Positions 26,771-63,169 of a stretch of DNA of 64,000 bases are shown here, in pieces. A program made the translations under genes and the position numbers. The notes beneath the pieces are model-generated. The model worked only from the letters and a program-made list of their open reading frames with translations. It was not told the DNA's origin and searched no databases. Within the stretch, counting starts at the first letter, position 1. The number at the start of each line of letters is the position of its first letter. The stretch comes from Euglena gracilis. Lineage: Eukaryota. The DNA is taken from assembly GCA_039621445.1 (NCBI GenBank), contig CP154954.1:7752634-7816633 (forward strand), given 5' to 3'.

Positions 26771-27048
26771 CAGGGGTTTTTTTTCAGTCTTGGACCCCCT
26801 CCACCCAGCACCAACCGGGGGGGGAGGGTGGGTGGGACACTTGGCCCCCCCGGGGGGGGGGGGGGGGGCTGGTGGGTTTATCTTTTTCGGCACCGAAGGC
26901 GCTGAAAATTTTGAAAAGGTGCTATTTTTAGCATTTTTGGCCATTTTCGGGCAAAAGTGGGTGGGACCCCCCCTTCCCCTGGGGGGCCACACCCAGGGGT
27001 GTGTGGGTGGGTGCCGACCCCCTCCCCCCAGTCTTAAAAAAACCCCTG
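26771..27048. mobile_element. hAT-type MITE (CAGGGGTTTTTTT TIR)
   Basis: TIR CAGGGGTTTTTTT/AAAAAAACCCCTG. TSD aacatgac/aacatggc (7/8). Related copy at ~56099-56323. Confidence 0.85.
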
Positions 27049-36802: not shown

Positions 36803-37240
36803 CAGGGTTCGATATAAGGAGGGCGTACATGGTTTAGGTGGGGGGGTGTCCTCCCCTTCCCCCCCCCCTCCTTGCCCGCAGGGGGGGGGCCGGACCCCCC
36901 CCCCCCCCACCTGCAAGGGGGGTCCGGACCGACCCTCGGGGGCAAAAATTGACCCCCCCCAAAAAGGGTCAATTTTTTCCTCCGGCGCTTCGCGCCGAAA
37001 ATTTTTTGCATTTTTGGCACATTTTTGCCCAAAAAGTGCCCAAAATGGCACTTTTGGTCGTTTTGGGGGGTCAAAAATTTTCGGCCCGGCGCTTCGCGCC
37101 GGGCCGAAATTCGGCCACCCTGACCGCGCACCTGTTTAGGTGGGGGGGGGGGGGTGTCCCCCCCCCCCCCCCCCCCCTCCTGGCCCGCAGGGGGGGGTCC
37201 GGCCCACCCCCCCCCCCACCTGTCCTTATATCGAACCCTG
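36803..37240. mobile_element. hAT-type MITE (CAGGGTTCGATATAAG TIR)
   Basis: Perfect TIR and perfect 8-bp TSD GTTAACCC. Same family as 47459-47886. Confidence 0.93.
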
Positions 37241-40106: not shown

Positions 40107-41567
40107 CAGGGATTCCCTCTGATTCGTGGCACGAATAATCACGAATAATCACGAATCACCACGGATTTCGGGTTTTCCGAAAATCACGAAGAATCATGAA
40201 TATCACGAATAACCACGAATGAGATTTTTTTCCTGGGAATTTTTTTTCTTTACAACTGTAGTCATTCAGCATTCGGAACTGTGTTTTATTTGTTCTTTAG
40301 AAAATGTCTTCTTCGGATTCTGATGATGAGGTTGAGACCGCTTCACTGTTGCGCAACAACTGGCCGTGAGCGACTTTGCTTTCTGCTTTTGTGATGGATC
40401 ATGTTTTCAGCCAAAAAGGGGTTTGTTTGGACAATGGAACGCTCACAATGATGATGCATAGGTACAACGTTGGCAACTTTTTGTACCCCCCCCCCCTTGT
40501 CCAACGCCGGGCTTGTCTGACGACCACCCCCTCCCCCGGTCAGAGATGAACTTTTTGCATACATATGATGTTGGTTCGGCCATAATTGCTAAACGTTGGC
40601 CAAAAACAGTGAAAAATGACCAAAATGACCTAAAGATGGCCAAAAATGCCAACCATAGTCAAGAAATGGCAAGAATGGCCAAAAACAGCCCAAAATGGCC
40701 ATATACCCCCATCTTCGGTCAATTTTCCTCTGACTTGGGGTCCACCTCCCCCTCCCCCCCTTGTCCAATGACCACCCTCCCCCCCCCCTGGTCGGAGATG
40801 AGCATTGGCCATTTAGCGACCCCCCAGGGGGGGGAGGCATTTCCAATCCTAAAAGCATTGTTCTTCCTGCCATGCAGGGCGTAGCTCAAGAAAATTTGAC
40901 CCCGGCCCCCCTCGGGGGGGTCCAGCCAGCCAGCAGCCTTTTTCCAGCCAGCAGCCTTTTTCCGGGACCCTCCCCTCCCCCCCATCGACGAAAAATGGGC
41001 AACATGGCTCAGATTTGGGCTAGCCAGTCGAAAAATCGGCAGCTTTTTTCCAGCCAGCCCAAATTTTCCAGCCTCTGAGCTGGACCACCCCCCCCCCCCC
41101 CGGGGGTCCTTAAGCAACGCCCTGTTGCTAGGGCGGTCCATAAGGGACGGGAAGTTTTTTTTCGTTAAGGACCGCCCCCCGGCCTAAGGGCCGACCAAGG
41201 GCCGGCGAAGGGCGACCAGGGATTTGAAAAGGGGTTCAAAAGTCGAAAAACACACTTATTGACGTTTTGGGTGGATGGACGACAATTCAAGAATGAAATC
41301 ACTTTTTTTCCCCGAAGTCGACCCGTTTTTTTTTGCCAAAATATGGCCACTTTTTGGGACATTTTTCCCTATGGATTTTTCATTGAATGTGTCGGGACGG
41401 GATTTTTTTTTTGCTTAAAGACCGCCCTGCTTCCTGCCGGCATCCCAGCAGTCCATCATTTAGCTGAAAACCGGGCGGATTTTTGGAACCACAAATAATC
41501 ACGAATAATCACGAATAATCACGAATCAGAAATGGCGGTCCCCACCACAAATGGGAGGGAAACCTTG
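40107..41567. mobile_element. Older TIR element (CAGGGATTCCCTC...GAGGGAAACCTTG) with (AATCACGAAT)n subterminal repeats and nested insertions
   Basis: Imperfect TIR and flanking direct repeat GATTAGC (7 bp). Contains the MITE at 40875-41124. Confidence 0.6.
40875..41124. mobile_element. hAT-type MITE (CAGGGCGT(T)GCTTAAG family)
   Basis: TIR CAGGGCGTAGCTCAAG/CTTAAGCAACGCCCTG. Degenerate TSD ctgccatg/ttgctagg. Relatives at 43530-43959 and 61283-61711. Confidence 0.85.
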
Positions 41568-42619: not shown

Positions 42620-42738
42620 CAGGGGTTTTCAAAGCCGGAAGGGAGCTGACCCCCCCCCCCCCCTCCAGCCAGCCAGCACCTTTTTCCAGCCGGCCCGCGG
42701 GGCCCCCCCCCCCCCCGGAGTTCTGAAGAAAACCCCTG
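42620..42738. mobile_element. 119-bp hAT-type MITE
   Basis: TIR CAGGGGTTTTC/GAAAACCCCTG. TSD ataactag/ataactaa. Confidence 0.85.
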
Positions 42739-43433: not shown

Positions 43434-44819
43434 ATGGGAAGGCAACTGGTCTGGGAGGAGCCTGGTCACCTGGATCATAGATTCATTTAACGCCGTGTGA
43501 CCCCCGGGGGGGGGGTTCGCGTGTGGGGGCAGGGCGTAACTTAAGAAAATTTGACCCTCTGGGGGGTCCAGCCAGCCAGCAGCCTTTTTCCAGCCCGGGA
43601 CCCCCTCCCTTTCCCCCCTCAACGAGATTTATTTCCAAGCACCCTTCGTTGGCTGGACGGCAACAGATTTTTCGCTTTTGTGGGTCAAAAATGGACAAAA
43701 AATGGGTCAAAAATGGGCGAAGATGGGTCAGATTTGGCTGTCCAGGACATTTTTGGGGTCAAAAAAGTCGATTTTTTTTATAGCTGGCAGTTTTTGGGAC
43801 ATTTTTTTTTTTCACTTTCGATTTTTTTAGTTCCTGGTTCGACCCCTGGTCGGGCCCAGTTCCAGCCCAGGGGGGAGGGGGGTCAGCCAGTTGCCTTTTT
43901 CCACCCAGCCCAAATTTTCCAGCCTCTGAGGTGGACCCCCCCCATAAAAAAACACCCTGGTTGGAGGCCTCTGGACCCCCCCCCCCCCCAGGGGGTGCGC
44001 CATGGGTCAGATTTGGCCGATCTTTTCAGCATTTTTGGCTGATTTAGGCTGGATTTCGGACCTCCCCCAAGGATTTCCCTCAGTCCTAAGGGACACTAAA
44101 TCATTTTTTTTTCCTGCTGACACAATGTCCCATGGCTTTGGCTCTGGGTGGACCACTTTCGGTTTGGTACCAATGGGGTTCGGCCAAACCGCATTCATTT
44201 TTTGAGCTATTTCATCCTCAGAGACCAAAAGTGACCCCTCCGCCCCGTGGAGGAGACAGCTGGGTTTTGAAAAGTGACGTTTTTTTGAAAGGGAAATTGA
44301 CCCCCCCCTTCCCCCCGGGTAAGCAACGCTTTGCAGAGGGTGCCTCCTCCACATGGGTTTCTCCATACCACATGGCCCGGGGGATTTGCAAGGAGGGATG
44401 AGCACCAGGAACTCCATCAAACAAAATCCCAGGTTTCCTCAGCCCCAATGCACACATCTCTCAGAACTGATCATGTCCCCCAGCACACCCAGCAACAAGG
44501 TTGCCTCCGGCATATTTTGAAGATGGTGCCAAAGGAAATCAGTGTTACGAATTGAATGAATGGAATCTCGGCTGGGTGCTCTCTCTGGTGGAAAGTCCTT
44601 GGCCGGGGGGGGGGAGTGAAAGCTGTGTGGCATTGTAGAAGCTCTGTGCTATGATTGTTTGCAAAGGGAGGCCAGGCTTCAAGGGGAACAGGATGAAGGG
44701 GCTGAAAAGGAGGCACAAAAATGGATGGCAGCATCCTGCACAAGGGTTCTTTGCGGACATTTCGGATTGTGCATTGAGGTTGCCATTTTTTTTTGGCCCC
44801 GGAAGCAACCTTAGGAAGC

Positions 44820-47800
44820 GACGCTGCCCCTGCCAATGAAGATGAACGCCGGCTGGCCCAGCTGGGGTACAAGCAGGAGTACACCCGCATCTTCAACACA
44901 TGGACCAACTTCGGGCTCACCACCAGCATGGTCAGCGTTCTGCTGGGCATCGTGCCCTTGTACACTTATTCGCTCCAGACTGGAGGTGTGTCCTCTCTTC
45001 CATCGCTCTCAAGCCCCCCCCCCCCAACGTGCCCAACAAACACTCCCTGTTCGGGCCGCAGCTGTTGTCAGGTGCGTTGCTGGGTGAGGATGGGGCTGTG
45101 GGGGGTGAAAGCCACTGCCTCTTGGGCTGGTGCACTCATTTAACACCTGTGTGAACCCCTCCCCAAAGGGGGTTTCAAGAATGGGTGGGTGGGTTGGGGC
45201 TGCTGGACCCCCCCCCCTGGGGGGCACCATGGGTCACATTTTGGCCCGGCTGAAGGCGAGGCCAGAGAATTTTTTCAAGGGGTTTCGGCCGATTTTGGCT
45301 TGGTATTGGGTGGGTGGGTGGGTGGGTGGGTGGGTGGTTAACCCCCACGGGGGGGGGGGGGGTCATGCGGGTTTGGACCCATGGAAGAATGGAAACCCCC
45401 CGGTCATTAAGCGAATCTGGGTGGAACCCAAAGCGAGCGAACCTTTCAGCGCGAATAATTGGAAGGGAGCTGAATAATGGATCAATTTTCAGCCTTTTTT
45501 TTGCAAAATCCCCCCAGGTGATTGGATCCGGTTTAGTGGTCGGCTGCAGGTGGGGGGGGGTGGCAAAGCCGACGTTGAGTGCATATTTGGCAGTTTGCTT
45601 TTTTTTGGACGCTGCTTTTTTGATTTTGGCGTATTTTAAAAAAAGCAAAAAAAAACGCCTATGAGGTTTTGCATGGAAAATTTTGTGAATGCATATTTTC
45701 AATCATTTTTGGCATCTTCTGGGATCTTTTCTGCCAAAAAAATTCTTTCCACTAAAATGAAAAAAGGCATTTTTTTTTGCCTTTTTGGATGTTCATTCAA
45801 AGTTTGGTTTGCCGAGGTGTGACGTTTCACAACGAGTTTTTTCAAATGAGATTTCATTTTTTTATTTCCTTTTTTTGTTTTTGTTTTTTGGCGTTTTTTT
45901 TTTCAAAAGAAATACGGTGTTTTTTAAAAACATGGTTTTTTTCAAAAAGAATTTGCAAAATGCCAAGCATGATTGAGTGTTAATGACTGATTGGTTTTCT
46001 GAAAAAAGTGAGTGACTGGTGTTTAGAAGAGTGGACGCGACCCCCGCTCCCCCCGGGAGTTGGTAAATAATTGTATAACCCTGAAAGGGTTTCCTTATTT
46101 CTGAACCGGGAGGTATTTTGGCAATTAACCGGGGCATTTTAACAAGGCACTTGGGGCAGTTTTAAATTTGCCCGAGATGGGGTCTGTCTGGTCGGTCGGT
46201 CTGGTGTGTTGGATTGAAGTGCCTGCCCAGACACTCGAGGGCACTCTGAGACCCCCCCCTCGGTGCAGAAGGGATGGGAAGCTTTTTTTCCTTTGAGGAC
46301 CGCCTTTGGGCCTAAGGGATGGCCAATGGCGAATCCGGGGATCGAACGGGGGCAAAAATCAAAATAAATCAAAAGGTCGAAAAACGCGTTTTTTGACGTT
46401 TTGGATGGATGGGCGATGGTTCAAGGATGCCCCTTTATTGCCAAAATACGGCTATTCCTTCGTCCATTTTTTTCATTGACTGTGCTGGGATGGGAAGTTC
46501 TTTTTTTTTTGTCAAGGACCGCCCTGCCCCCCCCCTCTTGGTTCCGGACTTGCCCCCATTGGCACAATTATACAAATCCTTTTTTTTTGAAGATTGCCAC
46601 ATCCCAAAATCCGAACAATATCATTATGACTGGCGCCCAAGTCAAGCAGTCATTCCCCAAAGCATTCCGGGCACAGGCCATGCGTGTGTGTTCCGGGACT
46701 ACCCAGCAACGACCATCAAACGGAAAGTTGCAGGAAAGATTCTGAGAAGGAGACCGAGCTGTGCGAGTCATGGCCAGTTCCCCCCCCCCCCGGACCCCCC
46801 CAGGCCCCCCCCATGACCCCTCCCCCCCCGGACCCCCCCAGGACCCCCCCAGGACCCCTCCCCCCCAGGACCCCCCCAGGACCCCTCCCCCCCAGGACCC
46901 CCCCAGGACCCCCCCAGGACCCCTCCCCCCCAGGACCCCCCCCCCCCACGACCCCCCCGGGGGCGGTACCCACAAGACCCAATAACCATGGCATTCCGGG
47001 GGCCTTAGGCGCACGCTACCGGGGGGGGGGGGGGCTACCGCCCCCCCCCGGACCCCCCGGTCTTCAAAATAGCCTCACCTTGTGGTGCAAAATTTTTGTT
47101 GTGTTGCGTGACCCCCAGGACCCCCAGGACAGGGTCCTGGGGGGGGGAAACTGGCCATAAGTGAGCTGTGCACCATGCTGCCCATTTTTGAAACTTGTTG
47201 GACCTGGGCTGACTTTGGCCAACCCCAGCACCATTTCATTTTTTGCTCATTTCATTTTTTGCTCAGATGTTTTTTTTAAAAAAATCAAAAAAATATAAAT
47301 AGCACATTTTATTGGAGAATCTGAACCAATTGAACCTGAAACAGTATTAAAAAGAGAGAGGGTTCATGTGATACTCAACCCGGTTTGGAATTGCACAAAT
47401 TGCAGTTTTGGAAGGGTTTTTTGAATTTTTAAAGATCTGCCCAAATGTGTCCCCCAAGCAGGGTTTGATATAAGGAGGGCGTACATGGTTTAGGTGGGGG
47501 GGTGTCCCCCCTCCCCCCCCCCCCTCCTGGCCCGCAGGGGGGTCCGGACCCCCCCCCACCTGCCAGGGGGGTCCGGACCGACCCTGGGGGGGGGGTATCC
47601 GAGACCCCCCCCCAAAAAGGGTCAATTTTTCCTCCGGCGCTTTGCGCCGAAAATTTTTTGCATTTTTGGCACATTTTTGCCCAAAAAGTGCCCGAAATGG
47701 CACTTTTGGTCGTTTTGGTCAAATTTTTTCGGCCCGGCGCTTCGCGCCGGGCCGAAATTCGGTCACCCAGACCGCGCCACTGTTTAGGTGGGGGGGTGTG

Positions 47801-50800
47801 CCCCCCCGCGCCCCCCCCCTCCTGGCCCGCAGGGGAGGGGGTCCGGACCCCCCCCCCCCCACCACCTGTCCTTATATCGAACCCTGCCCCCAAGTCCTTT
47901 GGCCCCCAATTTCACATCCCAAAGTGTATTACGGAAGTTGGCTGATTTTTGGACAGAATGCTTCCTGGCTCAAATACACTCAGCCACCTGGTGCTGCCCC
48001 CTCACCTTGTGGTGCTCTTTCCCAACAGGACCGGCCGTGATGCTCTGGAGTTGGGTCGTGATCGGTGTAATGGCCAAATCATTGCTTGGCTCCGCCACTG
48101 TGCTCACACTCACGAACAACAGTTGATGCCAGAAATGTGAGGGAGTCATTTTGGGCTGTTTATCCCAATCACTGTGGATCGCAACACACATTTGATTGTG
48201 GAAATGACTTTGACTTCGAAGAATTCGCATTTTCACCGCCTTTTTAAAAAAAAGATTTTGTCCATTTTTGCTTGTTTGTTTTATGTGTTCAATCAGTTGA
48301 CATTTTCGAAACCAGCAGTTTCCAACACGTGTAAGTTGAAATGGATGGATTTTTGTCCATCCTAGAATTCAAGTTTTAATTGATTGATTGATTAATTTTA
48401 AGGTTTGTTTGTTGGTGGTTTTTTTTGTTTGCAGAACACACATTTTTTGAAGGAAGATTAAACCCCCCCCCCCATTTAAACCGACCCGTCGGTTTAGGAC
48501 TTTTGGGTTGGCGGAAATCCTGGAGGGGGTCGGTTTAGACGGGGGGTCGGTTTCAGGGGGAGCACACGGCTGGCCAACGGCGCGACGGAAGCGGGTTGAT
48601 GTTAGCAAGGCAATTTCAATCGGCAAATGCCCAATTTGGTTGGCCAATGCCTAACTTTGAGTGACAAATGCCTGCAAATTCTTATTTTCGGTGGCAAATG
48701 CTGAATTTTGGGTGTCATATCCAATTTTTGGTGGCAAACTGCCTAATTTTGGGTGCAAACTTCAAATTCTAGATAGCAAATGCCTAATTTTGTAATTTTT
48801 GGGTTCCAACACCAAATTTTCGGAAGAAAATGCCCAATTTGAGGTGCAAACTCCAAAATTTTTGAAGCAAATGCCAAATTTTGGGTGTAAAATCCTAATT
48901 TTGGGTCATCAATACTAATTATTCAATGAGCATGGACGCTCTTTCCGTTGGCGGCTTCCATTATGTTGCGCATGTTTGTTATCCAATTTGCCATGGGTCG
49001 GTTTATTTCTTTTTTTGGTTGAAATTCTGCAATGGGTCGGTTTGGAAGGGTAGGTCGGTTTAGAAGGGGAGTCGGTTTAAATGGGGGGGGGTTTACCCAT
49101 CACCTCGCGGGGGGGGGGGGGGGTTGTGGGCAGGTTTGAAGGGAGGGCATTTTTTCCCCTCGAGGGATGGGTGATAATTTTTATAAACCAGGCTGATTTT
49201 TGGCCATTCATAGTCTTTCTCACGTCACAAATGTATCCAATGAATCTTGTTTTTCATTTGCTTTGTGCACAATTCACAAATTCCAGGGGGGTTATGCGAT
49301 TGGGATCCCCAAAAAGCGTACCAAAACGAAGTCGAAAACTCAAATGATTAATTCGGGGCAGTCTGGATCAGGCTTGATTTATTAAATTTTTACAGTGCTG
49401 TAGGGTGGCTGCTGGCCCCCCGCGGCGGGGGGGTGGTTGACTTGAGTTCCGTCTCGAGGCAATCCAGGCAAATTTCTTTTGCCACCCCCCCCCCCCCTAT
49501 GTCCAACGACCAGTAATCCCTGTTCTCCAACCACTGGGGGGGGGGGGTTGTTAGACACGGGATCCAAGAAAATGCATATAGGTTGGCGAAACCTCCGAAA
49601 AGGTGTCCTCGACAGAGGGGGGGGTCGTTGGACATGGGGGGGGGCAGGTCGTTGGACGTGGGGGTAATGACCATTTTCGGGAAACGCATTTTTGACCCCA
49701 GCTCACACAAGGTCGTTATGGTATTTTCCACCAACTCCGCCACAACAAGCAATGGCATGGCCAGGACACTGTTCGTGGTTTCCTCACTGGCTGAGATCTG
49801 CGCTGCGTATCCCACAACCAGGGTTTCATGGGGATCTTGAACAACCTTGAGGATGGAGGAGGGCTCGACCCCTCCGTGGTGGGTGGGGGGCCGCCCTCTG
49901 CTCGCTGTAATGTTACTGCATTCCACTGCTTTCAGTGCTGGTGATCAGAAATGGATGGATTTCAAGGAACAAGTGACTGGCTGATTCTTTTGAACGTGGG
50001 CGGTGCCCGTCGTAAAGGTGTGGTCCCCCCCCCTAACCTTGCCATGCAGCCCTGCCCGCAATGGGAGCACTGTATTTCTGGGCTTACCGCTTAGGCGGCC
50101 CCGAGTGGGGTCCAGGATGTTTTTTTTTTTGCTTTGATTGCACGCTGGTGTATCCCGGTATCCATGCACGCTGTTATATCCAACCATTTTGATGCACAAA
50201 TTACGCACAAGCAAGATATACAAATGCACCTACCTACCACCCGCCCACCCTTCCACACACACCACTCACACCCACGGCACATGCATGTGCACACACCCGT
50301 TTTCTTTCCACATCTCTTCATAAGTGATCATTAGTTCCAGCCTTTTTTTTAAGTTTTTGGATTGAATCTTTTTTTTTGAGAAAACAATCCTGTTGTGCCC
50401 CTTCTCCGCTTGGACCGCCGGATGGTGTAATTTGTTGGGGCAGATTGGGGGTGTCGCCAGTGGCGGCTATTCCGGCGCTGTGGTCATCGGCGAAATTGTG
50501 CAAATCACAACCGGCATTGCAATGAATCCAGCCCAGATTTTGGGAATTTACGCCGCACCCAAGCCTCTTTTTTTAAAAAAAATATATGCGTTTTTATTGC
50601 ATTCAAAGTGTAGCATTATTTATGCCCCAAAATTTTCAGTACACTGAAAACAAGGCCCAATTAATTGCTAAACAAATTAACCCCCTCAATAAGTGCACAG
50701 TGCCTTTATAAGTGCGCACCCCCAAGGGTCCGAAACCACCTCCCTAAAAAGTGCGCACCCCCCCCCCCCAAAGGAGAAATTACTGTCACATCTCAGGTCA

Positions 50801-53800
50801 GAAAGCACACACAATTCTCAGAATTGTCCTTCTCAGATCAAACATTTCTACCGCCCAAGCCGAAATTGGAAACACAATCACTCTTACCCCCCCCCCCCCT
50901 AGTCGTATGACCACCCCTCATTTATGACCACCCCCCGGTCACAGGTTGCAGGTCATGGGGGTGTTATGACCACCCCCCCCCCCCCGGTCACAGGTTGCAG
51001 GTTGCGAAAAATTTAACACCACCTTACCTATGACCGCCACCACATTTATGACCACCCCCCGGTCACAGGTTGCAGGTTATGGGGGTGTTATGACCACCCC
51101 CCCCCCCCCCCGGTCACAGGTTGCAGGAACCCGGTCATACGACTAGGGGGGGGGGTAGGTGGCCGGATTCGCATTTAAGCTTTTTTGTGTTGGTTTGCGC
51201 ATTTCCGCAAATTACCAAAACTTTTTTATATCGGCTGTGTGGCTCTGGGGGGTCTGAAAACACAGCAACAAGAGAGTGCAAAAAATGATCGAAATTCTGT
51301 TTTTGGCGGTGTGACCCCTGGGACTTTGGTGAGAAATGGTGTTTTTGGGGGTCCAGAAATGGGCTCCGCACGTCGAAACCCGCGGGACCTTCCCCCCCCC
51401 CTCATGGGAGTGAAAAAAAACGCAAAACAGCAACACAGGAATGGGACCTTTACTGCTGTTGTTGCTCCTATCCAGGCAAGGACAGGACAGCCACCAGATC
51501 CCACCGGATCCCACCGGATCTGCAGATTCGGTGACCATTGGTACAGATCTGGTAACAAAACCAGATGATTTGGGCCAAAAACACCTGAAAATGACCAACA
51601 TTCACTCAGAATGCTGGTTCATTGCAATTTTATAATCGATGGGCGCAGGTGTTTTTCTCTCATTCAGTCATTTTTGGTTGTGCCTGATTCTTGCCACGTG
51701 GTGCGATGCACGCGGTGCCGGCAGGGATTTTTTTTTCGGCGCCTCCCCCCCTCCCCCCGGGGTCCAAGTTTTAAAAACCCCCTGGGTGCCGCACGCGGTG
51801 TGAAACACGCGGTGCGGAAGCCACCCACCCACCCCCTGGGGGGGGGGGGCTCAGGGGACCCTTGTCTCGTAATGATTGAATATTTGTGTGCGAAAGGACA
51901 TTGTGCAAGTGGTTAACGATTGTATCACCTTGCTACTGAGCTAAAATGCAATAAATCAATAAAAAAACAACAGACAAGCAAAAAATCCAGACGAAAGCAA
52001 GTCATTTGAAATCCAGTAAAGTGTTGGAAGAATTACAGCAAATTTCTGTAGGAGGCAACATGCAATGGTCCGTTTGACAATTTTACGAAGCCAGAGGTTC
52101 GATGCGTCGCTTTGAGGCCAAAGTTTGTCTGGGGAAGATATTCCCTCAAAGTTGTTCTTCTCTTTCCGAAGAGACATCATCCACTTTCCATCCACCGTTT
52201 GATCAATGATGCGCATTAATGGTTTCAACTTGGGAGAAGGGCATGTTGCAATGCTTTTTTTTTGAACCCCCAAGGCTCCTGCCACAAACGCCAGCACAGA
52301 ATTGAAAATCTGGTGGTGTGAGCAGCCCCCACTCCCCACCCCCTCCCCATTCCTTGTTTTTCCCACGGTGCCGATTGTTAGGTGAAGGTGTTCTTTCGAT
52401 GCCGAAGAATTCCCCCCCCCCCCATGAGGTGGATCGGGGGAGTGTCCCCCACTTCCTGGTGGGTGTGGGTTGAACCCACAGCCATGCCAACGTTGGTCGA
52501 CCCGCCCACCCTCTTGGTGGCAGTGCTCATTGAAACGGGTGGGGACGCCAGTGGGAGGGGAATACCCTCTTATCTCAATTGGATGGGGAACCGGCGGGGA
52601 AAGGAGTTGCTTGGCGCGGACCCTTGTGGTGGCTGGGGTGGTCAACACCCTCTCCGACACGATGCTCACGGGCAGGCAGCTTTTTCGCCAGAGGTAGGTG
52701 GGCCACAGGACCAAAGGTTCATAGGTTCATTCAACACCTGTGGTGACCCTCCGGGGGGGATGGGTGGGTTTTTGAGATTGGGTGGGTGGGTGGGTTGGGA
52801 CCGCTGGACCCCCCCCCCCCCAGGGGAGGGGGTGTCCTGTGCCATGGGTCAGATTTTGGCCCGGCCAAAGGCCAGGCCAAACAAATTTTCGGGGGTTTTC
52901 GGCCGATTTTGGCTGGATTTTGGGTGGGTGGGTCAATGGTTGACCCCCCCCCCCCCTGGGGGGTTGTGGGTGGGGGGGTTTTGAAAACAGTGGGTGGGCG
53001 GGTTTGGGCCCAGGGTCCCTCGCGGGGGGGGGGTCACCAAGGTAATCCATGAATCTGACCCTCCAGATTCAATGACGCCATTGGGCTAAAATTGCCTGTG
53101 TGCAGGACTGTGCTACATCTCAGTGGTGTGGCACCTCGTGGGCTGCATCTTGATCATTGCGCTCATGAACTGCTATGCTCCAACCCACAAGTCGGTGTCG
53201 TATGAGAGTACAACAATTCTACTGGTTTCACACCCAAGCAGCAACTTCATTGGCTCCAAAACGGGCCTTTGCTTGAGAACTCCATTGGGGTCCACTCCAA
53301 GGGGGTCCATTGTCTGATATGTGCATTTGCTTTGCATTTTGCAGGTTTTTTGTTACAATGTCACAAGCACAAGCCACACGCACCATCCACTCTCGACATC
53401 CGCATGGTTACTATCCAATTTTGAAATCATGAATGCATTCACCATTTTACCATTATGACAAAAAAATCTTTCAGAAAAATTCTCTGCGAACCAGAGGGAA
53501 GGCTGCACCCCCAGCGCAGTCCTTACAAAAAATTCCGTCCCAGCATCTTCAATGGAAAATCCACAAAAAAGGTGCAAAAAATGGTCATATTCTGGAGGAA
53601 AAAAATGGGTCGATTTTGGGGGAGCACTTCTTTCTGGCGCACCTGGACCTTCGCCCATCCACCCAAGACGGCAGAAAAAGTGTTTTTTTTACTTTTTTTA
53701 TATTTCCGACACCGTCCGACGCCCGGAGAAGCCATTGGCTGTCCCGGCGGTGCTTAAAGGGAGGTCCTCTACGGGACTTCCCTGTGCACTCCTGGGGGAT

Positions 53801-56800
53801 GCTTTGGGAAGGTAAGTGGGGAGGGGCAGTGCTATGGCACACTTTGGCGGCGATGCCTTAAAATTGATCCCTCCCTGGAGGGTGTGCCTGCAATGGGCAG
53901 GCACCCGGGAGCACAAGGACTTGTTGGTTGTTGAAAAAGTTGTAAAAAAGAATCCTGCAAGTCCCCTTGCTGGGCGTCCTGTTGCGAAATTCAATTAAAA
54001 ATAATACAACAGATATAGAACCTTGTAATATAAATAAAAAAGAATAATAATGTAAATATCTCATAAAAATAAAATAAAAACTTATGAATAAAAATAAATT
54101 GTAAAGAAATGCAGAACGAGACCGCATGCTTTGATTCATGGGTTTGGAGATCACCTTCAAAAACGTCCAATGTCCTGGGTAGAGTTATGAGAGTTGTGAG
54201 TTTCCTCTGCTACGTGAGAGGCTGTGTCGTAGCCTGTGAATGTGGTGGAGGCAGCAAGCAAGCCAATCAGCCCAACATAAATATTTGATGGACACAAGCA
54301 GAAACACTTCAAAAAAAATTGTGTCTGGTGACAAAAACTGTTCGGATAACTTTATAAAAAAACAAATCAATATTTCATTAGAATAACATGAGTATGAGTC
54401 CATGAGTATGTGAAGAGAATTCCGAAATGTCCATCTATGACCAAGCTCATCAATTTCATATGTAATTCGCAATTTGGGATTTGGGAGTGCGTTTTGACAT
54501 TGAACTCATTTCCCACACTTGATTGTCCCCATTGCAGGCTGGGTGGTTCAACTGGTTCCTAAAGACCCCCCTCCCATCCAACACAGATGATGGCACAAAT
54601 GATCCAACTACCTGGGGGCCCCTTCCCAAACGATCCTGTTTGACCCCACCCCAAAGACTGAGCCCCTCCAAATACCCAAAATATGAACTAATTTGATGTT
54701 TAAGAACCCAACTGTCCAACAAAAGTTTCAAAAAATCATTGAATCCACGTTTTGAGCACATTTTACAACGATCCAATTGCAAGTTTTTTTGTCAATGTTA
54801 GAACCCCCCCTGAAGTTGTTGGTCCAGGTCAAAACAATTCAGGCGGTGCAGTTTCCGGGGGGGGGGGATTCTGAACCCCCCTTCCCCACTCTTACGCAGC
54901 CGAATTCACACTTAAGCTTTTTTGTGGGCTTTTGTGGGCTCTTTTTGCACCACCATGCAAATGAACACAAAGAAAATTATTGTGGCCTTGGGGACTTTGA
55001 AGTCACGAGGGCGAAAAATGAGCAAATTCCTGTTTTTGGGGAAACAGGGACCTGGGGGTTTCGTAAAAAAACGGCAATGCGCGCCTTAGTGCCCATGCAC
55101 AAAGAAAAAACCCTTAAGTGCGAATTCGGCCGCCTGAGCCATTGCTGGTGTCCATTCTATTCCCAATGATCCACCCCCATTGTGGCAATCCTGGCAACCA
55201 CCAGATTGCTGAAATCCAACCGTTCTGTTCCACCCCCCTTGCCATGATCGGTTCGGTGATCAACTGCCTTGTGCTGGCCAGGCTTCTCTTAAGCCCCACC
55301 ATGTGATGTGCAGCCGCTCAGGAAACTGTTGTGCACACAGTACGCCACCAGAAAAGTTTTTTTGATTAGGTGCCCTGGTGCCATGTTTTGCTGAGAATTG
55401 TTTCTCTTTGCTCCTCCCACAGGGTTTTTTGCATCAACGACGCCATATATCTGTTTTCGGGACCCAGGGGCTGATTGCTGGGGGCTGGGCGAGAAATTTG
55501 GGCTGCTGGCAACCTGGGGATGAAACCCCTGGCCATCGCGCTAAAACAAGCACAGAGCAGCATCGTCTTGTATTCTGATTTCGAAATTGTTTGGGTCTTT
55601 TGCTTTTTTTTCTTCGATTTTCGGGTATTTCTCCCCTTTTGGCACCCCAAACACAACCCTGTGACAAAGGTAGATTCCAACTGTGCTTGCCTTTCTGCCA
55701 GTTAACCCGCCGGGATCGTTCCAGGTGGGGCTGCACTCAGCGAAACGGAAGCCTGGGGGCCAGGGGTCATCTTCATCCTGGGCCTGAACTTCGCCATCCA
55801 GGATATGGAGCAGGGCGTTCGTCGCTGGTGTCGAAGGCCCCCCAGCCCCAGGGCCGGGTTCAATATGAGGGCAGGATGTCCAGGATCAAGGAGGGGGGCT
55901 TCCTTGGCTGCTTTTTTTTTTTCAACTCGGTTGACCCCCTGGGGAAGTGTCGCGCCAGGAGATTGCCTTTTTTTTGTAATTGGCAGTTTTGGGGGAGTTT
56001 TCCGTGGTTTTTTTTTTAGATGGGTTGACCCTGGGTTGAGCTCAGTTCCAGCTGGGAGACTCCCAGGGGTGGGGTTGTTAAGTGATGCCATGCCCCCCCA
56101 GGGGTTTTTTTTAGTTGTGGACCCCCGGGGAGGGGGGTTGGATATACTTTTCGGCGCAGAAGGCGCCGAAATTTTTTGAAAAGTGCTATTTTTAGCATTT
56201 TTCGCAATTTTTCGGCCATTTTTTTGTGGGTCCCCTGGGACCCCCCCCCCCCCCCCCCGGGCCCCCCAGGGGGTGGATGGGTGGGGGGGCCCCCCTCCCC
56301 CCCGGTCTTAAGAAAAACCCCTGGGGGGCCGCCAGGCATTACATTAAACCCTACTGGGGAGAGGAGGGGGTCCAGCCAGCAGCTTTTCCAGCCTCTGAGC
56401 TGGACCCCCCCCCCCCCCAGGGGTCGGCAAGCGACGCCCTGGTGCAGATGACCTCACGAATTCGGACAATGCGGAGGGCGCTGCCAGCACCCTCTGGGTC
56501 TCCCTCATGGGGGTCCCCCTCGCCGTGCTGTGCAACGTCATCACGTTCGTGGCCATCGAGTGCAGTAATTGTGCCAACCTTACTTCTGCCGCTCGCATGG
56601 TGTGCGGCCGATGTACTGTTGTGTTTTTCCCAGTCAGCTTTTATGATTGCAGTTCTGGTGATGAAAGCATGTCGAACCACGAAGTTGGATCACGTCCGGG
56701 GCAGAGGGAAAAGCTGGCATCCTTTTGGCCCCAGCGACATAGAAATCGGAAGGCAAATGTTTGCTATTAAAAGGCAAATGTTTGCTTTGCAGTATGTGGC

Positions 56801-59800
56801 CAGCCTCGCCCTCCTGTGCCATCCACTGTTTTTGCAGTTTATTTTTTGCAATTTTTTTTTGCTCCAGGCAGCTGTTCTGTGCCCCGCTGCAGGTCTATTC
56901 TTTCTCCCGCGACGGCGCCTTGCCGCTGTCCCGGTTCTGGTACCACGTCAATCGGCGGACGGGCTCCCCCGTCCGGGCCATCGTCCTGTGTGTCGTCATC
57001 TCCTTCCTCGTCGGTGTGCCTGGCCTCGCCAACGACACCGTGCTCGGCGCGCTGTTTTCTCTAACGGCCACCGGTCTGTGCTGGGGTCTGCTGGCTGCCT
57101 CGGCTGCTGACATTGTGCGACATATGGACAGATATTATATATGTATATATATCTGCCCATACGACAGATATATGACAGATGGAAGAATGCTGGCTGCTCT
57201 GGGGGCAGCATTTTTCCAGATTGCTTGCAAATCTTTGCTTTTCAGTTCCAGTCAGAAATGAGCCCTTTGCAAAGTCGCCGTGTTCTTTGCGCCGGAGCCC
57301 AGTCCTCGTTGGCCTCCTACATCATCGCCATCTTTCTGCGAATCACGGTGAGCCGCCCAGAGGTTTCTTTTCCGGTAATGTTCAGTAGGAAGAGGAGGCA
57401 AAGAAACCCCTGGAGCGGGCACACGTTCGTACCAGCTGAGTTCAACCTCAGCCAGGGGTTGCCACCTTGAGCGGTGAGCATTTAATCATTTAGTCACTGG
57501 CTGACCCAGCAGTGATTGGGACTGGCTTTTCAGAGTGAACGACTGGTTTCTGGCCCTAATCCCACCCCTGGGGGGTTGGGAAAAAACCACTGAAGTCACC
57601 CTGCACCGAAGGCACCAGGAAAAAACCTTTTTGGGTTGTTTTTTTTTTTTCACATTTTCGCTCATTTTCCCCTCGGCTTCCAGAGTGTCTTCCAAGGAAT
57701 AAAAGACTGACTGGTTTTTGGAAGAGTGGAACCCGGGGGTCAGTGATGGGAAATTGCATGGCTGTGAGTGGATGCTCCACGCTCCTGGTCCCAGAAAATT
57801 TGGAATCCTCACTTTTGGTTACCTGGAGCCTCCAGGGAGGCTCCCTGGAGGCTGGTTACCTGAGCCTCCCTGGTTACCCGAGGAGCCTCCCTGGAGCCTC
57901 CGGCAGGTAACCGATTTTGTACACAGGCCATGTTCGACACTCCATTTCTGCATCACAGCACCACAGCACAGAGCACGCACACCTGTCTCTTGTGACCTCA
58001 ATGGCACCTGCATGGCAATTGCATGTGGACAGTTTTGCGCATTTCTGGAGAAGTCCGTCCCTGTGGCAGTGCTTTCCGTTTGAAAACATCGCATTCATGT
58101 CATCATTCATTTATTTATATGCTTACACACACAAATCAAGTGTCGGTTGCATTGTGCGCATCCTCTTTCGCAGCTTCTTTTGTCTTGCAATGGCCACTGA
58201 GGCGCCTGCTGCCAAGCGGGTTCGGATGGCCGACGGACAGGTGTGTGCTGCGGAAAGGGTGGTGGGGGCAGACGTTGCCTCGCCTCAAGACATAGCACAA
58301 TTGGGGTGCCATTGTCGGTGTGGGCCAGTGAAACTGTTGTGGTGTTTGTGGCTATATCACCAGCAACAATGGCCACCTGTGGCGACACGTTGAAGGGTTT
58401 CTTATCCATGTTTCAAAAAAATGGGAACCGCCTTGGACCTCGACACCACCCTGCACCTGGACGTGCGTCATCTGATGGTCCATGAAACACACACTGGTCT
58501 GCTGTAGCCTGAGCACATCAAGAACGTCTGGACCTTCTATTGCGGTGCCAGTGCTGATTATTTGCCTTTCGTCAAACTCCTGCAGACCACTCCCCAGGGA
58601 CAAACATCTGTGAGTCCTTCCATGCGCAACTGTGCGAGCATCATGGACTGACGGGTCGGAAGGACTTGGACAAAAACACCATGTGGTTGGACCTGATCGT
58701 GCGCTCGTGGAATACTCCATCTTGGAGTTCCCAATGACTCCGGCTGCCATGGACACATGAGGCCCTGAACCACAACAGGTGCAACGTCTCTGCACGGTAC
58801 GGGGGGGGAGTCTGGTCAATTTTGCCAACCTTGTCATGGGAAGATTCTGGAACATTCCACGCTGGATCGCCATTTCCAAGCTGGGAAACGCCCGCACTGC
58901 AGCATGGGTGACCCATGTGCTGCGGGCTCTGCTGAAGGACATGCATCGTACAGCTCTGCAGAAAGGAACAACCACAGAAGCCCTGCTGGTTAATTTCAGC
59001 CAATTGACCCGGGAGGAGACCACGGCCGAAGACGCGGACTCCGAGGGGACTGATGGCTCTGAATCCATTGTGTCCCTACCAAACTAATACCTCACACCTA
59101 TATACGCTATACACACCCTATCTTCTTCCGGTCACAGGAAACTCAACGGTGCAGTCTCCTGCACAATTGCGTGCCACTTGCGTCGGTGGAGTTTGATATG
59201 TCCCCCCAGCCAGTGTTTGCAACCCCAACAGACAACGCCCCAATACTTCCCCTCCGGAAGCGCCGAAGGCTGCGGGATTTGGTGTTACAGGACGTGATAC
59301 AACCACCAGCTCAACACACTGACAGTGTGCAGGAACAGCCACCCATCCCCCCTCCCAAGAGTGACCAGAAGAAGCGTAAGCAGAAGCGCCCCGTCAATGG
59401 CTCCGAGGTCTCCTTCAGCGGAGTCCATATCCATTGTCGAAATCGCGGTCGGGGGAGTTGCTCTCTGTGGGTGTTCATTTCATTCAAAGCATTAACACAG
59501 GATGTATATGATGAAAGCATATGCACCGTCCGCCAATTTTTCGGTTTCATGACATGAAAGGCGAAGTCTGCTGCAGTTGCATCACACCGTTTACCTGTCG
59601 ACAGCTGACGCGTTGTTGGCCAAAATTTGTCCACACAAATGATTTTGTTATTGCGGAGCGGGGGGAGGGGGGGGTGAGGGGTAGGGGGGTTGGGGGAGCG
59701 AGGGAAAGGGGGGGGCCGCAGGCCCCCCCTTTCCACCGCTCCCCTCCCCCCCCCTCCCTGGTGAGCAACTGCTGATTCATGCATTCCGAGTCTGCAAGCA

Positions 59801-62689
59801 CCATGCATTGCATCACTGCACTCCACCTGTCCTACTGTCGGCCTGTGTACAAAACTGGTTACCTGAGCCTCCTTGGAGCCTCCCTGGAGCCTCCCTCCGG
59901 GGAGGCTCAGGGAGGCTGGTTACCTACGTACTTAAGTACTAAGTACTTTAGTACCTAAGCCTCCTTGGAGGCTCCCTGGAGCGGAGCCTCCCTGGAGGCT
60001 GGTTACCTGAGCCTCCCTGGGGCCTCCGGCAGGTAACCTCCTCGGCAGAATTCCATTTTTGCGGTAGACCCGGGAGCGTAGCACTCCAATTTCAGGTGAG
60101 AAGGGTGTGGATGGCTTGGGAAGCGGTGGGGCTGGCCTTTGTGCTGTTCCCCTCCAAATGGCCATACAACAAGTATTTAGTGGCATATTTCCAGAGCCTC
60201 GGAGGGGGGTCAGCGGGGGGGGGGGGGTCCAGCCAGCCTGCTGGTTCCCCCCCCCTGGACCCCCATCGACAAATTTAATTCCTGCCAGCGGAATGTCAAC
60301 ATAGTTTTCCGCTTTGCTGGGTTCTAAAATAGAAATGTCCCGAGGTTTGGTAAATATTTTTCGGCTGGAGGATATGCAAGTTGCATAAGTTGCATGATTC
60401 AAATTTTTGAATTTTTGCATTTTTTTGCATGATTTGCATTTTTTTTTTGCCGAATGAGGTGCTTTGTTCCGTACCCCCCCCCCCGGGCACTTGACCGGAG
60501 GGGTCAGTCACTGGTCTGGCTGGTTCCCCTCTTCTGTGCTTTTCAGCTGTTCAACTCCTGCCTCTGGAAGATGGGGTGTTCCCATGGGGGTGATATCTGT
60601 GGCATGGTCGTTGTTCATGCTCGTGGTGATGTGCTTGCCCCAAGCGACCCCCATAACAGGGGATTCACTCAACCAGGCATTTGTGCTGATTTATCATCTA
60701 CTCTTCCCACCACATAATGTCTTCACCTCCCTTCTCGGCTCGATGATGTCGATGATGTCAGTGTGATCCCTCCCCCCAGATGATCCCCCCCAATTAATTC
60801 CCCCCCCCCCCAAATGATACCTCCCCTTACAATTTCAACCGAAAAAATACCCCCCCCCCTAATTTCGGGTCTCAGATCTCGATTTTCGCCCCAACAAATG
60901 TGGTTGAAAATCAGTATTCACGGCATCAAATGACAAAAAAATGGGGTTTTGTGGACCATCAGGCCACAAAAAATGTCAGCTTTTTTTGCGAAAAAGTGCA
61001 AAAAAATATGTCCAAAAAAGGGTGTTTTTTGGGTATTTGTTTTGGCTTTAAATATTTTCGAAGAAATTTTCGAAATGTTTGAAGAAATAACCCCCCTCCC
61101 CAAATAAATGCCCCCCCCCCCCCCCTCAGGTGGGGACTTCGAGCGAAAAAACCCGGGATGCATACCAGTGGATAGTGGACCATTTGAACAAAGAAAGTGA
61201 AAAGGGATGGGATCAGAGGGCTTGGAATCAAATATGCCGACAAGGGAACAAACTTTTTTGTGTCTTTCACAGAAAGCCACACCAGGGGGTTGCTTAAAAA
61301 AAATTGACCCACCCCGCGAGGGGGTCCAGCCAGCCAGCAGCCTTTTTCCAGCCCCGGACCCCCTCCCATCAACGATATTTATTTATTTCCAGCTGCCTGA
61401 AGGGCGGCTGGACGGTAAATGGATTCGCTTTCGGGGGCCAAAAATGGACGAAAATGGGTCGGGAAAGGGTGGGCCAGGCAAATTTTGGGGTCAACAAATC
61501 TATTTTTTTTGCATCATTGGCAGTTTTTTTTGACATTTTTGCAAATTTCGATTTTTTTGCTACCTGGTTCGACCCCGGGTTGGGCCCAGCTCCAGTCCGG
61601 GGGTTTCCCCCTCCCCCTCCCTGGGTCAGTCAGCAGCCTTTTTCCAGCCAGCCCAAATTTTCCAGCCTCTGAGCTGGTCCCGGGGGGGGGGGGTCGTTAA
61701 GCAACGCCCTGAGCCACACCTTTGAAAGTTCAGGGGGGAAAAGATTCAATTTAACAACTGTACAAATCAATGGGGAGAAGTTGTGGTTTGCAATTTCTGT
61801 GTTTCATCACATTTGTCTTGTCACCCAGTGTTTGCAATACAAGCATTTTTGCACTCCCAAAATCAACTTTCTGTTTTTTGGTATGCCATAGAAATTCCAA
61901 GCATTCCCAAGAGTGTCCACCCTCTTGCCCTGAAATGGTGTCTCTTCGGGATTTTCACAAAAAAGATCAGCATCTGCTCATCCTTCATTTTGGAGGTTGA
62001 CGGGCATCGTCCAGCACTTTTTGGAATCATTATTAATTAATTAATATTAATATTAATATTAATTAAGAATTAATATTCCACCCAAAAAAAGGAAAAATTT
62101 ACATTTACAAGTTTAAATTTTATTAGATTTAATTACGGTAAAAATTAAAGTTAACAAATTGGATTGCGCCAGGACTGGCCTGTGAAGCCAGGAGCAGGAA
62201 ATGCTTGCCCCCCAACTACTCCCCAGTGATGCTTGGAGCGATCCTGCTCGGCTCATGGGTGGCGTGGCTGGTGTCCGCCCGGAAATGGTTCAAGGGCATC
62301 CCTGATGGGCTGCAGTCGAGCACTGATTTGTCCCCGGGTGTGCGTCCCTCCGTTCTCCGAATCCTGCTTTCCTCATAAATTTGTCAGCAGGAATCCCAAC
62401 ATCACGTTTTATTTTGCCATTTTGGGGGCATTTTTTTTTGCACCTGGAGCTTCCAGGCCAAATGTGGAGGCCATTTTGCTGATGGGTTGGGGTTGGACTT
62501 CAACGTAAACCCTGTCTGGAGTTCATCATATGCCTATGAGCTTTCAGGTTGTCTCAGAAAATGTTTTTTTCTGCATTTTTATTGTTTCGTTCTGCAGTTG
62601 ATGGTGACAACACCGAGGCTAACTGCATGCCAGAAAGAGATCCGGAAAGTGATGAGATTGTTGATAAAGTGACAAATAAGCAGGTCTGA
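44820..62689 (+). CDS. Spliced gene for an APC-superfamily amino-acid permease (ACT family, GABA/choline-permease-like). Exons ~44820-44985, 48029-48071, 49765-49815, 50060-50109, 50397-50556, 52619-52669, 53104-53231, [one exon not found], ~55232-55275, ~55762-55807, 56447-56599, 56893-57077, 57308-57354, 57418-57449, 60566-60670, 62214-62337, 62598-62689
   Basis: Concatenation gives EDERRLAQLGYKQEYTRIFNTWTNFG...YSLQTGGPAVMLWSWVVIGVMTLFVVSSLAEICAAYPTMGALYFWAYRLGGPEWGPFSAWTAGWCNLLGQIGG...TSAARMVYSFSRDGALPLSRFWYHVNRRTGSPVRAI...FNLGRWGVPMG...CLPQATPITGDSLNYSPVMLG...VSARKWFKG. These are typical ACT-family motifs. Phases fit at every junction except a frameshift near 53204 and a missing segment after 53231. 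Confidence 0.9.
44986..48028 (+). other. Conventional GT-AG intron (permease)
   Basis: G|GTGTGT...ctctttcccaacAG|GA restores TGGPAV. Confidence 0.9.
47459..47886. mobile_element. hAT-type MITE (CAGGGTTTGATATAAG TIR)
   Basis: Perfect 8-bp TSD CCCCCAAG. Confidence 0.93.
48072..49764 (+). other. Nonconventional/intermediate intron (non-GT start, AG end)
   Basis: 5' ggcCAAatcattgcttg pairs with 3' caagcaatggcATGgccag. Removal restores GVM|TLF. Confidence 0.8.
49816..50059 (+). other. Nonconventional intron
   Basis: aacCAGggtttcatgg ... ccatgcagccCTGcccgc. Removal restores YPT|MGAL. Flanking 8-mers cccacaac/cccgcaat match 6/8. Confidence 0.9.
50110..50396 (+). other. Nonconventional/intermediate intron (possible GT start, non-AG end)
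   Basis: gtcCAGgatgtttt ... aaaacaatcCTGttgt. Removal restores EWG|PFS. Boundary ambiguous by 1 nt. Confidence 0.8.
50885..51157. mobile_element. TA-flanked MITE with internal tandem repeats
   Basis: TA-C(n)-TAGTCGTATGACC ... GGTCATACGACTA-G(n)-TA. Confidence 0.75.
51722..51784. mobile_element. 63-bp minimal hAT-type MITE
   Basis: CAGGGATTTTT...AAAAACCCCCTG. TSD ggtgccgg/ggtgccgc. Confidence 0.7.
52670..53103 (+). other. Nonconventional intron
   Basis: gggCAGgcagcttttt ... aaaattgcCTGtgtgc. Removal restores MLT|GLCYIS. Confidence 0.88.
55276..55761 (+). other. Nonconventional intron
   Basis: ggcCAGgcttc ... gaagcCTGggggcc (N6). Removal restores CLVL|GVIFILG. Confidence 0.8.
55808..56446 (+). 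other. Nonconventional intron that is a degenerate copy of the CAGGGCGTTGC MITE family
   Basis: gagCAGggcgttcg ... gcgacgccCTGgtgca. Removal restores IQDM|DDLTN. Its 3' ~70 nt match the right ends of the MITEs at 40875-41124 and 61283-61711. Confidence 0.88.
56600..56892 (+). other. Conventional GT-AG intron (permease)
   Basis: ATG|GTGTGC...cccgctgcAG|GTC restores SAARM|VYSFSRDG. Confidence 0.9.
57078..57307 (+). other. Nonconventional intron with swapped core pair (CTG...CAG) and GT start
   Basis: gtgCTGggg ... gagccCAGtcctc. Removal restores TATGL|LASY. Confidence 0.8.
57355..57417 (+). other. 63-nt in-frame nonconventional intron
   Basis: gccCAGaggtttcttt ... aaagaaacccCTGgagcg. Removal restores ITVSR|HTF. 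Flanking 8-mers gagccgcc/gagcgggc match 6/8. Confidence 0.85.
57450..60565 (+). other. Nonconventional intron (3.1 kb)
   Basis: agcCAGgggttg ... caactcCTGcctct. Removal restores EFNL|GRWG. Confidence 0.88.
60671..62213 (+). other. Nonconventional intron
   Basis: aacCAGgcattt ... aaatgcTTGcccccc. Removal restores DSL|NYSPV. AAC is repeated at both ends, so the junction can slide. Confidence 0.85.
61283..61711. mobile_element. hAT-type MITE (CAGGG(C/G)GTTGCTTAA TIR)
   Basis: Perfect 8-bp TSD AGCCACAC. Confidence 0.93.
62338..62597 (+). other. Conventional GT-AG intron before the last permease exon
   Basis: G|GTGTGC...tttcgttctgcAG|TT gives an in-frame acidic tail (VDGDNTE...NKQV*). Confidence 0.7.
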
Positions 62690-63169
62690 TGCTTTTTTGA
62701 AAGCGCAATTGCAAATGCGTCACTCTGCGTGTCGTTAGTCCCTGCTGTATGTGCATGTGTGCGCGTGCGTGCCTGCGTGCCTGCGTGCATGCATGTGTGT
62801 GTCTCCCAACAGGAGTTTATGTTAGTCACCTCCTCCCCAAGTTTCAGCTAGAGAGCTGAGGATGCACATTTTTGCTGGTTTGGCCTCCAGGGGACCTAAT
62901 TTGTTTGCTGATTTTTTGTATGCCTGCGCTGTCCCCCCCCCCCCAAAGGCACACCAATGCCCTCTCCCCCAAGGGATGGACAGACCCTTTCACATTGGGA
63001 TTTCCCCGCAGGTAGAATTATAAAATAAAAAGGATTACGGTTTGGGTTTGTTGCATGCAAATGCATTTTCTTCAAGGCCCTTTTCCCTCAAGCGCATTTC
63101 ACCCATGTTTCCCACATTTTTTTTGTGGGAACCCCCCCCCCCAATCAAACACACATGAAAAGTCAGGAA

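Follow-up and report, generated by a model that had tools for sequence, protein, structure and literature searches.

A nonconventional intron of a Euglena gracilis permease gene, probably derived from a rearranged miniature transposon

The permease gene and the borders of its intron at 55808-56446

The 64,000-nucleotide stretch of Euglena gracilis DNA analysed here (hereafter the window; contig CP154954.1 of GenBank assembly GCA_039621445.1, positions 7,752,634 to 7,816,633 of the forward strand) carries a nuclear gene for an APC-family amino-acid permease. Our subject is one intron of this gene, 639 nucleotides (nt) long at 55808-56446, the core of which resembles MITEs (miniature inverted-repeat transposable elements) lying elsewhere in the window. 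With the exon at 56860-57132 as a query we retrieved a 561-residue protein with an AA_permease_2 domain (Pfam), referred to below as P0001; its source names it EG_transcript_5049, a style of name that we take to be that of the E. gracilis transcriptome. By tblastn and protein matching, P0001 matches the window exactly in 19 segments, which lie between 44473 and 62686 and, with one exception, on the plus strand.

The upstream exon (55763-55807, plus strand) encodes residues 278-292 of P0001 (...GLNFAIQDM) with an exact protein match, and the downstream exon (56447-56602, plus strand) encodes residues 293-344 (DDLTNSDNA...) with 51 of 52 residues identical, which gives 66 of 67 for the two exons together. 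P0001, which reads ...AIQDM|DDLTN..., is colinear over 55807|56447: residue 292 ends at 55807, residue 293 begins at 56447 and there is no gap. A preliminary description of this DNA, made from the sequence alone, had proposed that removal of the intron restores QDM|DDLTN. This is confirmed at the protein level, and the four nearest homologues (P0002, P0003, P0006 and P0007) have no indel at the same position.

The sections of Nomura et al. (2025, PMC12501133) that deal with knock-in experiments in E. gracilis define the nonconventional splicing code as 5'-N3CDG-/-CH'GN5-6|R, with a strict 3-nt donor spacer and a preferred 5-nt acceptor spacer. The intron at 55808-56446 is laid out as GAG, a core CAGGGCGT...ACGCCCTG (55811-56441, plus strand) and GTGCA, followed by G. 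At the 5' end the spacer GAG (55808-55810, plus strand) precedes CAG, the two together occupying 55808-55813; at the 3' end CTG (56439-56441) is followed by the spacer GTGCA (56442-56446, plus strand) and then by the purine G at 56447, the first base of the downstream exon. The whole, GAG-CAG...CTG-GTGCA|G, conforms to the code at slide 0. The intron can be slid by one or two bases over a shared GA, and none of the three allowed slides yields GT/GC-AG borders.

The 631-nt core begins CAGGGCGTT and finishes GCGACGCCCTG, and its two terminal arms are predicted to pair into a duplex of -28.9 kcal/mol that has 8 contiguous pairs and an extension. The flanks are themselves partly complementary (5/8) and lengthen the stem. 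These features, namely a 3-nt spacer, CAG, terminal pairing, CTG, a 5-nt spacer, a purine and the lack of GT-AG borders, are those given for euglenid nonconventional introns in the relevant parts of PMC12501133 and of Milanowski et al. 2014 (PMC3935182), and by every sequence criterion the intron at 55808-56446 is a Euglena nonconventional intron. Among the 16 introns mapped with P0001, six fit the code or its published CGG-CCG / CTG-CAG variants and one fits GT/GC-AG; the remaining nine fit neither as mapped, some of their borders being imprecise.

A scan of 55000-57000 against Rfam returned six sub-threshold matches resembling microRNA precursors and nothing else, all of them to a G/C hairpin at 56354-56420. 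The best reached 34.9 bits, where the gathering score is 70, and we regard them as hairpin look-alikes and not as a microRNA precursor.

Kinship of the intron core with free copies of a MITE family

Copy comparisons were confined to the 64-kilobase (kb) window. Within it the core 55811-56441 has both of its termini in common with three non-exonic elements, all on the plus strand. The first, at 61283-61711, lies within the permease intron 60674-62213 and is flanked by a perfect 8-base-pair (bp) duplication, AGCCACAC, at 61275-61282 and 61712-61719. The second, at 43530-43959, lies ~0.5 kb upstream of the start codon, and the third, at 40875-41124, is an internally deleted copy of 250 nt in which both arms are present; the flanking 8-mers of each of these two agree in 5/8 positions. 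Exact matches to CAGGGCGT on both strands of the window number six, and all six are ends of these three free elements or of the intron core; in shuffled controls the mean was 1.77, and 1 of 100 shuffles reached six. A 23-mer of the right arm behaves in the same way, since its four occurrences (0.00 expected) all stand at the right subterminal position of the same four elements.

The similarity is most extensive on the right. An 85-nt right arm is common to the core and the free elements at 73-84% identity; in the core it occupies 56357-56441 (plus strand), colinear with the free-copy right arms except that one 18-nt repeat unit is missing. By BLAST, 56371-56441 is 84% identical to 41049-41124 over 76 nt (expectation value, E, 5e-15) and 73% identical to 61643-61711, the free copies being 80-92% identical to one another in this arm, and none of 300 shuffles scored as high. 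The right ends of the elements at 40875-41124 and 61283-61711 are those to which the preliminary description had likened the end of the core. An internal block of ~90 nt is shared as well: 55968-56052 matches 43772-43866 at 69% over 95 nt (E 1.4e-6, BLAST) and is ~69% identical to both full-length free copies, again with 0/300 shuffles scoring as high against the two of them. Terminus, internal block, right arm and terminus follow one another in the core just as they do in the free copies, their orientation also being alike, and the 3+5 nt of the spacers are the only intron sequence outside the element.

The two full-length free copies, 61283-61711 and 43530-43959, are 70.6% identical overall. 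In global alignments the core without its nested element (see below) reaches z-scores of 5.3-5.9 against the free copies, as opposed to 21.8 for free copy against free copy. The similarity reaches both termini and is not confined to an internal patch, and the junction lies where it had been placed. The core ends, the family termini and the predicted splice-defining stem coincide, as had been claimed.

The interior of the core is composite. Two tandem, diverged copies of the internal block (a T-run followed by GGTTGACCC..TGGG..CCAG) lie at 55893-56063 (plus strand); the second, at 55968-56052, is the significant one described above, and the upstream copy, 55893-55967, is weaker and was judged by eye. 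A stretch at 56046-56092 (plus strand) resembles a degenerate right terminus of the family (...GTTAAGTGATGCCATG). Its alignment to the extreme end of the 61283-61711 right arm has a score that none of 500 shuffles equalled, and its alignments to the other two free copies are not significant (12/500 and 323/500 shuffles as high). A MITE of a second family, with CAGGGGTTTT... termini whose inverted repeats match in 14 of 16 positions, is nested at 56099-56323 (plus strand), as the preliminary description had recognised; it is 73% identical over 199 nt (E 1e-28) to 26862-27048, a portion of the element at 26771-27048. It has no recognisable target-site duplication (3/8), and the registers tried for it or for a larger unit (from 56064/56070 to 56353/56360) give only 3/8-5/8.

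The sequence from 56333 onward, just past the nested MITE, can be read as a degenerate left end, an ambiguous reading; 56333-56441 was considered as a complete short family copy and set aside as ambiguous, the motif being present in both arms of the free copies. The terminus-like stretches of the core are thus ordered left, right', left', right, that is, in tandem and not nested. From this order the core may have arisen as a dimer, joined tail to head, that was mobilised through the outermost termini, an idea that we hold loosely.

A metagenome scan with a 20-mer of the family gave one match, in what looks like bacterial coding sequence without a surrounding element, which we take to be chance.

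Target-site duplications and the excision of an element plus eight nucleotides

The strongest support for a MITE origin lies outside the coordinates covered by the preliminary description, and consists of five 8-bp duplications together with the code's exact 8-nt excision. A scan of the window for CAGGG...CCCTG pairs separated by 80-2500 nt, the inverted repeats of which agree in at least 12 of 16 positions, gave 24 candidates. Flanking 8-mers agree in at least seven of eight positions at four of the 24 (~0.01 expected by chance): the element at 26771-27048 has 7/8, and those at 36803-37240, 47459-47886 and 61283-61711 have 8/8 each. An element found by eye at 42620-42738 (7/8) brings to five the CAGGG-ended MITEs of the window with 8-bp target-site duplications, three perfect and two with a single mismatch. 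The duplications abut the termini directly, and their length is 8 nt, not 7 or 9.

All five lie on the plus strand. Besides the family copy at 61283-61711, they comprise a free relative of the nested MITE (26771-27048, duplication AACATGAC/AACATGGC), two members of a third family and a 119-nt MITE with CAGGGGTTTTC termini (42620-42738, duplication ATAACTAG/ATAACTAA). The third family is represented by 36803-37240, whose CAGGGTTCGATATAAGG termini match in 16/16 positions and whose duplication is GTTAACCC, and by 47459-47886, which is 86% identical to it, lies inside permease intron 2 and is flanked by CCCCCAAG. Elements of the hAT superfamily make 8-bp duplications and have short inverted repeats starting YARNG, and 8-bp duplications can also be produced by other superfamilies. 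With duplications of 7/8 or 8/8 and the common start CAGGG, the five window elements agree with this description and resemble hAT MITEs; no transposase was found among the 10 open reading frames scanned, and their membership of the superfamily is putative.

The intron at 55808-56446 equals the element plus 3+5 = 8 nt. Since the MITEs duplicate 8 bp and the two spacers also add up to 8, excision would take out the element together with one duplication's worth of bases and restore the original reading frame. A second nonconventional intron of the permease gene, at 49816-50059 (plus strand), is built alike: its core, 49819-50054, runs CAGGG...CCCTG over 236 nt, to which the intron adds 8 nt, and its flanking 8-mers, CCCACAAC/CCCGCAAT, agree in 6/8 positions, as do those of the intron at 52674-53104. 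Summed over the six code-fitting introns, the flanking 8-mers agree in 22/48 positions in the 8-bp register, compared with 10-15/48 at eight shifted registers.

Taken together, these results indicate that 55808-56446 is probably a nonconventional intron composed wholly of transposon-derived sequence plus 8 nt, namely a diverged, rearranged copy of a MITE, a non-autonomous DNA transposon, with a MITE of a second family nested in it, which was inserted into an exon. The element, or a dimer of it, would have landed within ...CAGGATATG|GATGAC... of an exon that was until then uninterrupted. Its terminal inverted repeats would pair in the pre-mRNA, a step that others' experiments have shown. The nonconventional splicing machinery would then make two cuts, one lying 3 nt upstream of CAG, the other 5 nt downstream of CTG and just before a purine, and the exons would be joined, making the insertion tolerable from the moment of landing and in either orientation. 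The preliminary description took this intron as direct evidence of intron gain from a MITE. The identity with the family stands; gain by insertion into the exon is what we infer, the intron's own flanks agreeing in 3/8 positions. The case is accordingly modest for this one intron and stronger for the general rule that intron equals element plus 8 nt.

If the stem continues into the flanks, the cuts would be staggered and would leave a 2-nt 3' overhang on each product. Such overhangs are an RNase III-type signature, which suggests an endonuclease-plus-ligase route.

The chances seem about even that the offsets of the code (3 before CAG, 5 after CTG) are matched to the 8-bp duplication of a superfamily of CAG...CTG-ended, hAT-like MITEs, free copies of which are still visible. 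If so, whenever one of these elements landed in a transcribed exon, whichever way it faced, a precisely excisable intron would result at once, the many 'slidable' direct repeats that have been reported where introns meet exons would represent duplications in decay, and the nonconventional introns, which make up most of Euglena's introns, would amount to the erasure, at the RNA level, of one transposon superfamily.

Two further observations concern the free copies. At the third-family elements 36803-37240 and 47459-47886, one copy's duplicated 8-mer is present again in the other copy's right flank, perhaps a sign that certain targets are preferred. The copies at 47459-47886 and 61283-61711, both inside permease introns, themselves fit the splicing code, the former as N3-CAG...CTG-N5|A (47456-47891) and the latter with N6|A (61280-61717). 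Given this fit, they might be excised separately, as nested introns.

Weighing the origin of the intron

Several observations weigh against a MITE origin of this intron as just set out. The left subterminal region, 55819-55935, is not similar to the family (23, 29 and 92 of 300 shuffles equalled the scores against the free copies), so that ~115 nt following the 8-nt left terminus are unrelated to it, and the core lacks the left subterminal arm that the free copies share at 74-84% identity. Selection for pairing with the right end could in principle have preserved the matching left terminus, or even created it. The core has a rearranged appearance, its internal block being duplicated and a terminus-like stretch lying inside it. 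The flanks of the intron, ATATGGAG and GTGCAGAT, match in 3/8 positions and show no insertion footprint at the locus; it is possible that a duplication has decayed in its intronic halves. The minimum-free-energy fold of the whole 669 nt leaves the termini unpaired in favour of internal G/C pairings, but this fold is dominated by G/C runs and is uninformative on the intron ends. No transposase was found in the 10 long open reading frames (out of 41 of at least 170 amino acids) that were scanned against Pfam, and the element comparisons cover 64 kb of the genome. The evidence for the junction is at the protein level and comes from P0001, a protein predicted from a transcript. The gene copy in the window departs from that transcript, the exon at 54288..54178 being inverted and 7 nt being missing at 53204, and in view of these differences the expressed allele may not be identical to the window sequence.

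Because the left arm is unlike the family and the core is rearranged, the core is better described as a diverged, rearranged derivative of the CAGGGCGT-ended family than as the recognisable member of it that had been proposed: the termini, the right arm and the internal block support that description, and the ~115 nt on the left and the build of the core do not. Likewise, the interior matches the bodies of the free elements in the block at 55968-56052 and fails to do so at 55819-55935. The identity of the intron with the MITE family is, on these alignments, well supported.

An unlikely alternative is that an older nonconventional intron already occupied the site, that MITE pieces inserted into it later and supplied its 3' end, and that the left terminus was adapted by selection for pairing. 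The unrelated sequence on the left, the composite core (nested element, duplicated block and internal terminus-like stretch) and the lack of a target-site duplication at the intron would all be expected from such a history. Against it stand the facts that, the 3+5 nt spacers apart, the whole intron is contained between the family termini, that the left terminus is the family's exact 8-mer, which in the 64 kb occurs only at element ends, and that the internal block and right arm stand in family order.

We see a slim chance that the direction was the reverse, with the free copies descending from intron copies, either by mobilisation as DNA or by reinsertion of circular intron RNA, and the intron as their source. 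Similarity by itself has no polarity, and a part of PMC11282704 reports that excised nonconventional introns occur as full-length circles. An RNA circle would, however, carry the 3+5 spacer nucleotides along, and none are seen within the free copies; moreover, the exact 8-bp duplications lying directly at the inverted termini of free copies are the mark of cut-and-paste DNA insertion. Even with an intronic donor, the intron would have begun as an element.

It is very improbable that the element is an insertion that stays unspliced, in an allele undergoing decay, and that the transcript comes from an allele without it. The inverted exon and the frame-breaking 7-nt deficit relative to P0001 do give the window copy the look of such an allele. 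Yet a recent disruptive insertion should carry its 8-bp duplication, where the match here is 3/8; excision as predicted by the code gives exactly the frame and residues of the transcript; and the exons match the transcript in 66/67 residues although the element is old enough to have received a nested insertion. Resemblance by chance or through low-complexity sequence (C/G runs, T runs) we reject: the region is rich in homopolymers and the global z of 5.3-5.9 is modest, but the right-arm and internal-block scores are matched by 0/300 shuffles, the right-arm 23-mer has an expectation of 0.00 and the BLAST match an E of 5e-15.

In Micromonas, Aureococcus and dinoflagellates, introner elements (Huff et al. 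2016 and later) are reportedly DNA transposons inserted into exons and removed from the RNA with one copy of the duplication, which restores the frame. The arrangement proposed here for Euglena would share these features. It would differ in that those introns are said to be spliceosomal, with GT-AG borders and one splice site supplied by the duplication, whereas the present intron has GA...CA borders, a terminal stem and fixed offsets. The introner elements of Amoebophrya are closer in some respects, being, in the part of PMC7789003 that describes them, non-canonical introns with a hairpin of 8-20-nt inverted repeats and direct repeats across the borders; there, however, the repeats are variable (3-5 nt) and the inverted repeats have no family-specific motifs, in contrast to the fixed offsets and 8 bp seen here.

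The proposal that euglenid nonconventional introns stem from MITEs dates from 2013; according to the relevant part of PMC3935182, no transposable element was then known in euglenids. A 2024 review entitled 'Transposon-derived introns...' (PMC11282704) sees terminal inverted repeats in CAG/CTG and, in the repeats at the borders, what is left of target-site duplications; in the portion that takes up this origin it gives no element family, free copies, duplication length or 3+5 = 8. In 2025 passages it is still called unclear or plausible (PMC12501133, discussion, where the origins are said to be unclear; PMC12621601), and the background of PMC11170887 agrees. PMC12501133 and PMC3935182 treat a MITE origin as a hypothesis, as texts of 2024-2025 still do; the present intron core is matched to non-exonic copies with 8-bp duplications. 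Subscription papers and supplements aside, we found no literature in which a euglenid MITE family is named, free copies are shown or 3+5 is tied to an 8-bp duplication. Intron borders that coincide with the termini of a family with free, 8-bp-duplicated copies lead to a testable rule, intron = element + 8 nt, which would account for the offsets 3 and 5 of the splicing code and predicts that any free copy placed in an exon with one copy of its duplication will be spliced precisely. The known routes from transposon to intron would gain one that is non-spliceosomal.

Some features of the permease gene copy stand apart from the question of the intron. Residues 227-263 of P0001 are encoded on the minus strand (54288..54178, 100% match), every other exon being on the plus strand. 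The intron start at 53233, which precedes this exon, is able to pair with minus-strand sequence upstream of it, which suggests that a segment within 53233-55228 is inverted relative to the expressed gene, through either a real inversion or a misassembly; no long inverted repeats were found flanking that segment. The codons VLT (residues 215-217) correspond to two bases at 53204-53205, a 7-nt deficit that shifts the frame within an exon and may reflect either a defect of the allele or a mistake in the assembly. At 62687-62695 the window has a stop codon (KQV*CF) where P0001 reads KQVACL; this may reflect another small intron or an allelic difference.

Other repeats in the window include families that, at 64-73% identity, occur both in permease introns and in the region upstream (45136-45328 with 52727-52942, 46261-46527 with 41134-41430, and 53527-53696 with 41408-41238). 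A long C-rich stretch at 25001-26000 has a GC skew of -0.733 over 1 kb. Within permease intron 2 an 11-nt unit, CCCCCCCAGGA, is repeated in tandem over 46780-46958, with higher-order periods as well.

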